A stretch of 19,835 nt of DNA from a virus (taxonomy: Duplodnaviria > Heunggongvirae > Uroviricota > Caudoviricetes), in IMG/VR virus record IMGVR_UViG_2534681832_000045; one strand, 5' to 3'. How positions within the stretch are numbered: the stretch's first letter is position 1; the number at the start of each line of letters is the position of its first letter. The position numbers were made by a program. Positions 15,001 to 18,000 of this stretch are shown here, in pieces.

Positions 15001-18000
15001 ACAAAACCCGCCCACAAGCGGGTTTTGTTGTGCCACTTATCTCGGATAGACATGGTGAATGCGCTGGTGGAGGAGATAAGGGTGATTTTTGTATGCTTGC
15101 AACATTGATTTCGTAACGTTATTATCCTGCGCCCGGCCCTTTAGCTCAGTGGTGAGAGCGAGCGACTCATAATCGCCAGGTCGCTGGTTCAAATCCAGCA
15201 AGGGCCACCAACCGCCACTAGCCATCAGGAAAGAGCGTCAACCCTTTAAGTTGAGTGTGCGAGGTTCGAGTCCCCGGTGGTGGTCCATTATCGGTATTCT
15301 GCGTTGTTAGCTCAGCAGGACAGAGCAATTGCCTTCTAAGCAATCGGTCACTGGTTCGACTCCAGTACAACGCGCTACACTTATTTTCCCGGCTCGCTTT
15401 TGCGGGCCTTTTTTGTATCTGCGCCACGCCCGGCGCATACCAACCACAGAGCCTTTCGGGGGGGGGGGAGCTTACGGAGTGGTCAGTGTGACTTTCTCTG
15501 TGGGCAGATCGCTCCCGGGCGTTGGCTCACCCACCCAAAGGAACGTCACGATGTTTGGTATTTTTGGTAAAAAAAGCCCGCAGAGCGGCAACGGAAATTA
15601 AAAAGTTTGAAAAACGCGATCTGGCACAGGTGGTGATTAACGCCGCCTACCTGGTGGCCTATGCAGATGGTGAATGTGAGGCTTCCTAGAAAGCGAAGAT
15701 CGAACAGGTACTGCGTAATCAGCCTGCGCTGTACGCGTTTACGTCAGAAATTAATGCGATTAGCGCAACCATTATCGGTCAGCTGGATACGAACTTTAAA
15801 ACTGGTCGTCGTGCGGCGTTACGTGAGATCGAGGATGTGAAACACGATACGCGTGAAGCGGAAGATGTGCTGGATGTGGCGGTGGCCATTGCGGAGGCAG
15901 ACGGCGAAATTGAGCCGGAAGAGCGCAAGGTGCTGGAAGAGATTGCCGGTGTTCTGGGTCTTCGTCTGGAGAATTACCTGTGACGGTAAAACTGCGCCTG
16001 ACTGTGGCTGCACTCCTGCTGTTTCTGGTGGTGATGGTGGATTTCACCAGCAGAATCATGTCGGTGCTGGCGGATGGGGTGCTGGTCTGCGGCATTATGG
16101 TATTGCTGTGGCCGGTGATAAAAAGAAACAGCCTGCATAATGCTTGATTTTTTTGTTTGCTGTTTATTAAAAACACTTCTGCATGGTGAATCCCCCTGTG
16201 CGGTGGGGCAATCAGCAAGAAGGAATATGGGGTAATCGCGGATTCAGGTGCTGATACTGAATTCACCGGGAGGCACCCGGCACCATGCTTTGCCACAAAA
16301 GTGTTATTTCTGTTTTTCTCAAACTATCATCGTTATCCCTTTATTTTCGGCTGCGCATGGCGCGGCCTTTTTTTTACGACCAGCCACTGGCAGATGGTCA
16401 TCCTGTGATTTGATTCCGCTTCCGGCTTTTTAACTCTGTTCCTCTACACGGGAGAAATTCGATGTCGATTAAACATTACGATGTTATCAGGGCGGCGTCG
16501 CCGTCAGACCTTGCGGAAAAGCTGACACACAAACTGAAAGAGGGCTGGCAGCCATACGGCGGACCGGTTGCCATTACGCCGTACACACTGATGCAGGCGG
16601 TGGCTATTGAAGGAGAGCCACAGGTCGGCCCTTCATCTGAGCCGGATTGGTACTACGTCATCGTACTGGCCGGGCAGTCCAATGCCATGGCTTACGGTGA
16701 AGGGCTTCCGCTGCCGGATTCATACGATGCTCCGGATCCGCGCATTAAACAGCTGGCGCGCCGCAGTACAGTTACGCCGGGTGGGGCTGCCTGCAGATAT
16801 AACGATATTATTCCGGCTGACCACTGTCTGCATGATGTGCAGGATATGAGTACGCTGAATCATCCGAGGGCTGACCTGAGCAAAGGGCAGTACGGCTGTG
16901 TCGGCCAGGGTTTACATATTGCCAAAAAACTGCTCCCGTATATCCCGAATAACGCGGGGATCCTGCTGGTACCATGCTGTCGTGGTGGTTCGGCATTTAC
17001 CCAGGGCGCGGAGGGGACATTCAGCGAGTCCACGGGGGCCAGTCAGGATTCGGCACGCTGGGGGGTGGGCAAGCCGTTATATCAGGATCTGATTTCCCGC
17101 ACAAAAGCGGCATTGCAGAAAAATCCGAAAAACGTTCTGCTGGCCGTCTGCTGGATGCAGGGAGAGTTTGACATGAGCGCCGCCACCCACGCACAGCAAC
17201 CTGCGCTGTTTACAGCCATGCTGGCACAGTTTCGTGCTGACCTCTCCGTGTTTAACGCGCAGTGCCATGGTGGCAGTGCTGCAGATGTGCCGTGGATTTG
17301 TGGTGACACGACGTATTAACTGGAAAAATACCTACGGCACCCAGTACAACACCATTTACGGGGCGTACAAAAACAGGGAGAGTGAGGGCGTTTATTTTGT
17401 GCCCTTCATGACAGACGGTAACGGCGTCAATACCGCCACTAACGCGCCGGCAGAAGATCCGGATATTCCGGCATCAGGATATTACGGTGCGGCATCGAGA
17501 ACGAATGGAAACCAGGTATCATCAAACCGCCCGACACATTTCAGTTCATGGGCGCGCAGGAGCATTATTCCGGATCGTCTGGCAACCGCTATTCTGAACG
17601 CAGCCGGGCGCACCTCAGCCTTCATCAGTGGTAAGGCACCGGAAATCAAACCCTCGCCCGGCGGCAACACGCCATCGGGTCCGTCTGCAGATACGTCCGT
17701 TCGCACAATCTCCCTGCTGCCGGCAGCCGGAGAGGCTGCTGCGCAGGGCTGGAGCATTAAGGATGGCGGAATTCAGTTGTCAGATGGTGTATTTAAGATC
17801 ACCAAGCAGAGCAATAAAACCTGGTCCCTGACGCATCCGGTGGATGACGCAATTACCCTGCTGACACAGGGCGGCAGACTGACCTGTAAGTTCCGCCTGT
17901 CAGGCGCACTGACCAACAATCAGTTCGGGCTGGGGATTTATCTGTATACGGATGCTCCCGTTCCTGATGGTGTGGCGATGACGGGTACCGGTAATCCGTT

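Follow-up and report, generated by a model that had tools for sequence, protein, structure and literature searches.

Within a stretch of 19,835 nucleotides (nt) of a tailed-phage genome (Caudoviricetes; IMG/VR virus record IMGVR_UViG_2534681832_000045), hereafter called the window, a 76-nt element at 15212-15287 has the outline of a transfer RNA (tRNA) and is probably a tRNA pseudogene or a strong hypomorph, a decayed allele of a phage-borne tRNA gene with little role in decoding. It is most likely an additional decayed member of the tRNA genes that make up the ileZ-argN-argO cluster (gene names taken from GenBank annotations), not a new kind of RNA. The slot that follows ileZ in lambdoid prophages, downstream of Q, is occupied either by argN, a gene for tRNA-Arg(UCG), or by a sister lineage with the anticodon UUU. 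The window carries the UUU lineage with two added lesions, a deletion of U12 in the D stem and a C70U change in the acceptor stem, atop the C33, A51·C63, C1-G72 and U73 that are found throughout the lineage. The analysis demonstrates homology to tRNA genes, the two lesions, the loss of recognisability by a covariance model and residence in a defective prophage.

The element and its parts are as follows.

15212-15287, plus strand: tRNA-Lys(UUU)-like element of 76 nt, the ΔU12/U70 allele of the Lys-type gene of the argN slot; called Lys(TTT) by ARAGORN.
15221-15236, plus strand: D arm, with 5' strand GCC, loop AUCAGGAAA containing G18G19, and 3' strand GAGC.
15238-15254, plus strand: anticodon arm, with a stem of five pairs (UCAAC/GUUGA) and the loop CCUUUAA at 15243-15249.
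15260-15276, plus strand: T arm, CGAGG-UUCGAGU-CCCCG, with a canonical T loop and a stem of four pairs out of five, A51·C63 being a mismatch.
15281, plus strand: U70, which pairs with G3 (15214) and is C in the intact allele.

A sequence-only reading of this DNA had described a 76-nt element at these positions, ending in CCA and lying one nucleotide after ileZ, and this description is accurate: ileZ ends at 15210, and a single A at 15211 separates the two. The same reading credited the element with good acceptor, anticodon and T arms, which holds for the seven pairs of the acceptor stem and the five of the anticodon stem and fails for the T stem, with its A51·C63 mismatch. The acceptor stem joins 15212-15218 to 15277-15283, one of its pairs being G3·U70 (15214 with 15281), and it has an unusual end consisting of C1-G72, C2-G71 and a discriminator U73 at 15284. 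The weak D stem noticed at the outset is real. Only G10-C25 and C11-G24 are contiguous, C13-G22 is possible if A23 bulges, and the stem thus falls short of the four pairs (10-13/22-25) of a tRNA; the corresponding 5' strand of the intact allele reads GCUC, whose U12 would fall between 15222 and 15223 and is absent here. Equally real is the C33 reported in the loop CCUUUAA, which lies at 15244, immediately before the anticodon UUU (15245-15247), where an elongator tRNA has U33. Many other tRNA features are present, among them U8, A14, G18G19, a T loop fitting UUCRANY, the 7-bp acceptor stem and a 3' CCA (15285-15287). Positions 36-41 read UAAGUU in the element and UAAUC/A in the host tRNA-Lys, the slash marking a cleavage site discussed below. 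The determinants of lysyl-tRNA synthetase (LysRS) are U34, U35 and U36, and the E. coli enzyme prefers A73; the element has the UUU anticodon of a tRNA-Lys and has neither the A73 discriminator nor lysT-type similarity. As for a protein-coding explanation, only short unsupported open reading frames overlap the element.

The origin of the element becomes apparent when the same slot is compared among prophages. In E. coli strain 3385 it holds a 77-nt gene, annotated by PGAP as tRNA-Lys, to which the element is 97% identical (75/77). The strain 3385 gene has U12 (AGCTCA as against AGCCA) and C70 (GGCGG as against GGTGG) and is otherwise identical. The 77-nt tRNA-Lys gene, which PGAP also annotates in APEC O1, IHE3034 and UMNK88 and which usually stands in the order Ile-Lys-Thr-Gly, has the same anticodon arm with C33 and the same T-arm mismatch, and it is clearly the parent allele of the element. 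The two differ in that the 77-nt gene retains U12 and C70 and is followed by copies of thrU and glyT, whereas the element is followed by argO, scores below 15.7 bits and is without PGAP annotation. ΔU12 and C70U set the window copy apart, whereas C33 and A51·C63 are derived traits shared by the E. coli clade as a whole.

A wider alignment brings in 50 distinct 76- and 77-nt alleles of the argN and Lys types, in which the positions of the cloverleaf are paired in 96.2% of cells, compared with 28-53% in slid controls. Between argN and the Lys type, three pairs have switched in a compensatory manner: 7:66 from U-A to C-G, 27:43 from C-G to U-A, and 30:40 from G-C to A-U. A search for versions with U33 returned one true relative, the IMG/VR locus L010 (the other 11 matches were unrelated hairpins), and this relative has the loop CUUUUAU, a perfect T stem, a compensated 4:69 pair and a score of 53.2 bits. 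Judged by these alignments, the resemblance of the element to a tRNA is a matter of homology and not of chance. The compensatory switches, the paired cloverleaf and the canonical relative together indicate that the UUU lineage arose as a structurally selected tRNA, through an anticodon shift within the argN family.

The element is 79-84% identical to argN alleles, the upper figure being that for the O157 argN, a 77-nt tRNA-Arg(UCG). Its identity to the host tRNA-Lys(UUU) is 58%; the anticodon arm of the host sequence used agrees with the published AriB site (PMC12409363). The whole cluster, 321 nt long, matches PPompW prophages at 100% identity and, at 94%, the Stx2c/Stx2a phage loci in which the three genes bear the names ileZ, argN and argO. 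A comparison with the argN of Stx2 phages (for example AP012530.1, AP012538.1 and phage 2851, where it lies upstream of stx), suggested at the outset, bears out a common slot between ileZ and argO downstream of Q and a common acceptor end (C1-G72/U73), D loop and T arm. It departs from the expected argN identity in the anticodon, which is UUU and not UCG, in C33 as opposed to U33, in the switched pairs 7:66, 27:43 and 30:40, and in the deletion of U12. The anticodon change removes C35, the main anticodon determinant of arginyl-tRNA synthetase. The window locus is a mosaic, since everything from the T arm of the element through the spacer that follows and argO agrees exactly with the O157 Stx2c-type locus.

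Within the C33 clade, changes that break pairs are roughly as numerous as those that preserve them, U8C is present in a frequent allele, and alleles are about as diverse as in the neighbouring Thr and Gly genes. Purifying selection within this clade is thus not shown by either the pair-change counts or the allele diversity.

How far the element has drifted from a recognisable tRNA can be gauged from its scores. The Rfam tRNA model, RF00005, has a gathering threshold of 29 bits, and an Rfam scan at that threshold found no match to it in the element. In a permissive Rfam search the best match within the clan was tRNA-Sec, at 15.7 bits, so the RF00005 score of the element must be lower still. On the same scale the intact 77-nt allele reaches 44.4 bits, L010 the 53.2 bits given above, and the neighbouring tRNAs 65-74 bits. 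An allele that has the U12 deletion and retains C70 also scores below 17.8 bits; set against the 44.4 bits of the intact allele, this means that the deletion alone costs more than 26 bits. The U12 deletion is the decisive lesion. ARAGORN, with its pseudogene line at 100, gives the element a borderline call of tRNA-Lys(UUU) at 103.2, as compared with 112.6 for the intact allele, 122.4 for L010 and 118-122 for canonical tRNAs. Thermodynamic folding ranks the alleles in the same order. In the element the cloverleaf is about 9 kcal/mol less favourable than the ensemble energy, as compared with 3.4 kcal/mol in the intact allele and 1.2 in L010, and the deletion of U12 costs about 5 kcal/mol of cloverleaf stability.

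Covariance scoring and ARAGORN had both been put forward as checks by the sequence-only reading, together with the idea that a different, canonical fold might turn up. No such fold rescues the element: its minimum free energy (MFE) structure is an irregular hairpin with no cloverleaf (free-energy z = -1.36), and it matches no Rfam family at threshold. An identity as tRNA-Sec or as YrlA (Y-RNA-like) was rejected as well, the scores being 15.7-21.8 bits where the thresholds are 47 and 69; these sub-threshold matches stem only from similarity in the acceptor and T arm. A separate family, the Plastid-ycf2 5'UTR (RF04354), gives sub-threshold matches of 28-40 bits to the antisense strand of several ordinary tRNA genes, including 15135-15208 on the minus strand of the window, and its model appears to contain an antisense tRNA.

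Annotation of the element is divided along the same lines. PGAP passes over the element and annotates just its neighbours, tRNA-Ile and tRNA-Arg, in 14 of 14 genomes sampled from those with the identical 91-nt stretch, as well as in a genome identical over this region and in the best match to the whole window (99.8% identity). GenBank records of PPompW prophages, on the other hand, annotate it as tRNA-Lys. ARAGORN-based pipelines label the segment tRNA-Lys (GenBank LC5678xx) and PGAP omits it; the segment is best treated as a probable pseudogene.

With other tRNA pseudogenes and anticodon-shifted genes the element has in common a cloverleaf remnant, a stem lesion, a covariance score below threshold and an anticodon identity that changed within the gene family. 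It differs from them in lying inside an otherwise functional three-gene operon, with spacers of 1 nt and 13 nt, a position from which it is almost certainly still transcribed. Transcription would be shared with ileZ and argO and would start from a local promoter-like site, from Q-dependent late transcription, or from both. The intact acceptor/T-arm helix and CCA may still make the transcript a substrate for RNase P. The product would fold poorly, and it would be a poor substrate both for LysRS, given U73 and the improper D arm, and for the ribosome, given C33. The element would in effect be carried along by its functional neighbours. The host has its own tRNA-Lys(UUU) genes, and AAA and AAG are common codons, so there is no rare-codon demand that would protect the element. 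Decay in this position is not unusual; about 36 of 125 ileZ-linked loci show the same slot decayed.

Several observations weigh against regarding the element as a decayed gene. Among 5426 complete E. coli genomes, 221 share exactly this allele, and the U12 deletion is found on two backgrounds, one with U70 followed by argO and one with C70 followed by Thr. This is not a private lesion, therefore, though clonal spread and recombination would explain its distribution. With A23 bulged, the D stem can still form three of its four pairs, and no damage affects the acceptor and anticodon stems, the T loop, G18G19, U8/A14 or CCA. ARAGORN still calls the element above its default threshold. Finally, folding in silico ignores tertiary contacts and modifications, and even the MFE structure of ileZ is not a cloverleaf.

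Of the other explanations, the one that fares best, unlikely as it appears, is that the element is a functional non-canonical tRNA-Lys(UUU) that would replace host tRNA-Lys cut by PARIS AriB, P2-OLD or PrrC, with an arm (C33, G39, U40, U41) that would be uncleavable. AriB cuts the host tRNA-Lys(UUU) at U36AAUC/A41, and cleavage is abolished by U39A and inhibited by A41C (PMC12409363). The targets of P2-OLD are paired CNG motifs at positions 28-30 and 40-42, with A37 also required, and a changed 30:40 pair allows phage tRNAs to escape cleavage (PMC12445682). Lambdoid phages encode Gam, which is the trigger of P2-OLD. There are precedents on both sides, in that the tRNA-Thr of the lambdoid phage 21 rescues cells from OLD and phage tRNA-Lys(UUU) genes rescue cells from AriB. 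The lineage in question reads U36AAGUU41 and so is without the AriB site. It also differs from argN, which has CAG/CUG at 28-30/40-42, by exactly G30A/C40U, so that both CNG motifs are lost. The Lys derivative has, in other words, changed exactly those anticodon-stem positions that are read by two Toprim anti-phage nucleases of P2-like phages and their satellites. The three compensatory switches and the canonical relative argue that the lineage evolved under selection for tRNA structure, and codon supplementation fails to explain a tRNA for common Lys codons.

The element itself is a poor fit to such a role. It has the anticodon of the host target and altered nuclease positions, with no CNG at 28-30 or 40-42, and what it lacks is a competent tRNA body: U12 is gone from the D stem, C33 replaces a near-universal U33, the covariance score is below 15.7 bits and the cloverleaf lies 9 kcal/mol above the ensemble. 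U73 stands where LysRS prefers A73. Pair-breaking changes in the C33 clade are about as numerous as pair-preserving ones, the U8C allele is common and the anticodon arm mutates, with no sign of strong purifying selection. Nor are the Thr and Gly genes that accompany the intact allele resistant variants, each being 100% identical to its host counterpart, thrU or glyT; and the prophage here is defective. Known rescue tRNAs, such as the T5 tRNA-Lys(UUU) that counters PARIS AriB and the tRNA-Thr(UGU) of phage 21 and others that counter P2-OLD, are likewise phage-borne, with the anticodon of the target and changes at 39-41 in the one case and at 28-30 and 40-42 in the other. They differ from the element, whose lineage is derived from argN and not from a Lys tRNA, has C33 and U73, and is damaged in the window copy.

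A broader version of the same proposal takes in the whole UUU/C33 lineage, which would be an argN-derived, anticodon-switched rescue tRNA-Lys directed against PARIS, P2-OLD or PrrC, the ΔU12 allele being either partly active or else an uncharged decoy or a processing scaffold. This is, if anything, slightly less probable than the narrower claim. Were the intact allele functional, temperate lambdoid phages, and not only large lytic phages like T5, would deploy rescue tRNAs, and the allele would show that a bacterial tRNA can naturally work with C33. One candidate that could have been added to this picture, the linked Thr gene as an OLD-resistant variant, was rejected, as it is identical to host thrU. 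A related observation concerns argN itself: its alleles carry CAG at 28-30, CUG at 40-42 and A37 (alignment A2, columns 29-31 and 41-43), in keeping with the P2-OLD consensus, and argN is therefore predicted to be OLD-sensitive.

About as doubtful is a role as a processing scaffold, in which the acceptor/T-arm helix and CCA would recruit RNase P, whose cut would make the 3' end of ileZ and separate the cluster, leaving the anticodon and D arms dispensable. RNase P would cut 1 nt after ileZ, or 0 nt after it if A(-1) pairs with U73. RNase P can separate closely spaced polycistronic E. coli tRNAs without RNase E. Only 1 nt lies between the CCA of ileZ and C1 of the element, and A(-1) is able to pair with U73; the acceptor stem is 96.9% paired across the 50 alleles, and it is kept along with the terminal UCCA in 80-81-nt alleles and anticodon-arm-deleted alleles that tRNA finders do not call. 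That said, many argN-type loci have spacers of 6-9 nt, so the close spacing is no general rule; the T loop, a normal contact of RNase P, is frequently damaged in the decayed alleles; and the conservation of the stem may merely reflect how young the lesions are.

The sequence-only reading had itself offered a decayed argN-type gene, which is right insofar as the element is a degraded occupant of the argN slot. Direct decay, by which the element would be argN (tRNA-Arg UCG) with random mutations, is improbable. It accords with the position between ileZ and argO, with the 79-84% identity to argN alleles and with a 3' third that matches the argN locus of the O157 Stx2c phage from the T arm through the downstream spacer. 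Random decay does not yield the pattern seen, namely three double pair-preserving switches (7:66, 27:43 and 30:40) with a clean change from UCG to UUU, the wide distribution of an intact 77-nt UUU allele with a score of 44.4 bits, and the existence of a canonical U33 version; the element belongs to a separate UUU sub-lineage.

Weakest of all, and very improbable, is the idea that the element mimics a tRNA outside translation or in mistranslation, for instance as a decoy that occupies anticodon nucleases or tRNA-modifying enzymes, or as an alanine acceptor by way of G3·U70 that reads Lys codons. Although G3·U70, the major identity determinant of alanyl-tRNA synthetase (AlaRS), occurs in the element and in one argN allele, and weak sub-threshold YrlA matches overlap homologous junctions in relatives, the G3·U70 pair is one C-to-U transition away from the common allele in a C1-G72/C2-G71/U73 context without secondary AlaRS elements, the YrlA matches reach 15-22 bits where the threshold is 69, and neither a partner gene nor a conserved extra structure is present. 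The argN allele concerned is that of the O157 Stx2c phage (L002, 515 with 582), which PGAP annotates as tRNA-Arg and which has G3·U70 in the same C1-G72/C2-G71/U73 context.

The decayed-gene interpretation can be set within the wider history of the slot, which was surveyed in complete genomes and in IMG/VR. The Lys-type lineage, including the window allele, is present in roughly 800 of the 5426 complete E. coli genomes (roughly 15%), and a pattern scan for the Lys type across one genome per species found it only in E. coli and Shigella. An IMG/VR sample of 125 loci drawn on the 3' end of ileZ gave a middle slot of Arg(UCG) in about 65, of Lys(UUU) type in about 21 and with no callable tRNA in about 36. 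Slots with no call contain an 80-81-nt allele in which the T loop is broken and a loop of 11 nt is present, an anticodon-arm deletion, or an argN/argO fusion. Another sample, of 115 loci drawn on the Lys-type anticodon arm, contained 94 with the order Ile-Lys-Thr(UGU)-Gly(UCC), 12 of the window type and 2 with the U12 deletion on the C70 background followed by Thr. In a third, drawn on the Lys 3' end and the start of Thr, 123 loci yielded 19 alleles, and here the anticodon arm was seen to mutate too. In Stx and lambdoid prophages, the slot in the middle of the ileZ-X-argO cluster thus turns over fast, being occupied by Arg(UCG), a Lys(UUU) derivative, fusions or wrecks.

Some of the variants merit description in their own right. 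The commonest decayed middle slot is the 80-81-nt allele, seen at L004 507-587 and in about 30 IMG/VR loci (for example L015 and L021), in which a stem with a loop of 11 nt (ACGAUAACAGG) takes the place of the anticodon arm and the T loop often reads GCGGGU. Next to stx2e this allele is annotated by PGAP as tRNA-OTHER, and ARAGORN makes no call. In five other IMG/VR loci (L140, L157, L172, L176 and L201), the Lys-type gene is followed by a thrU-like gene that has the anticodon UUU in a canonical CUUUUAA loop, owing to G35U together with A26G, and that by its sequence represents a second, independent anticodon shift to Lys. The Lys-type gene of those five loci has C63U, which repairs the T-stem mismatch, and G73. 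The prophage Thr(UGU) and Gly(UCC) genes (L003 792-945) are 100% identical to chromosomal thrU and glyT (K-12, L243 589-948) and are joined by a 3-nt spacer, with tyrU and its flanks missing; the phage apparently captured the host thrU and glyT genes.

The window as a whole covers the early-to-late region of a lambda-like prophage, running from the integrase gene through DicF/dicB, replication genes, paa, hokD/sok, a DUF968 gene (ydfU in the GenBank PPompW record) and rusA to the Q antiterminator gene. The features around the tRNA cluster are these.

About 14250-14939, plus strand: Q antiterminator gene, directly upstream of a late-promoter-like site.
14923-14951, plus strand: late-promoter-like site, TTGCAA-17-TATATT, resembling pR'.
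15000-15029, plus strand: hairpin terminator 3' of Q, resembling tR'.
15097-15125, plus strand: sigma-70-like promoter, TTGCAA-17-TATTAT, 10 nt 5' of ileZ; a consensus match only.
15135-15210, plus strand: ileZ, a canonical tRNA-Ile2 with anticodon CAU, 72.5 bits against RF00005; Met(CAT) by ARAGORN and tRNA-Ile by PGAP.
15211, plus strand: spacer nucleotide A(-1), A or G in relatives, which could pair with U73 (15284) and extend the acceptor helix to 8 bp.
15301-15377, plus strand: argO, a tRNA-Arg with anticodon UCU, 68.1 bits against RF00005; Arg(TCT) at 15301-15375 by ARAGORN.
15391-15416, plus strand: terminator-like hairpin GGCUCGC-UUUU-GCGGGCC (15391-15408) and U run, closing the tRNA cluster.

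The segment 14923-15029 matches the pR'/tR' arrangement 3' of Q, and the site at 15097-15125 is a possible dedicated promoter of the tRNA cluster. The element lies 1 nt 3' of ileZ and 13 nt 5' of argO, and the tRNA-Sec model alignment begins at 15211. The gene downstream of it also has an altered end. In argO the 3' terminus is CUA (15375-15377), with no encoded CCA, where relatives have GCGCCA, a state common to 15 of 15 window-type loci examined. With its encoded CCA lost, this tRNA would need trimming and CCA addition.

The surrounding PPompW-type prophage is defective. PPompW prophages have all been judged so (PMC8112680), and the present one no longer has lysis, head and tail genes, while its cro-like gene, a fimbrial gene, one TerB-family gene and one DUF6645 gene survive only as pseudogenes. 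An internal stop interrupts the TerB-family gene, and the DUF6645 gene is split into two frames and truncated (15552-15985 and 16462-18232 of the window, respectively). We take the product of the DUF6645 gene to be possibly a NanS-p-type esterase. In the closest genomes a C-terminal fragment of a tail-fibre gene and nleG follow directly after the DUF6645 gene, and this junction, with the damage to the TerB-family and DUF6645 genes, shows large deletions in the late region.

Three other RNA families were matched above the Rfam threshold: DicF at 4537-4588 on the minus strand (76.7 bits), sok, next to hokD, at 11703-11852 on the plus strand (103.9 bits) and STnc100 at 16152-16324 on the plus strand (100.8 bits). 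All three are typical of Qin and lambdoid prophages. Between the argO terminator and the TerB-family pseudogene there is a run of 11 G at 15458-15468, whose length is 7, 8, 10, 11, 12 or 13 among otherwise near-identical loci; this variation may reflect slippage-prone or phase-variable DNA, or assembly noise.

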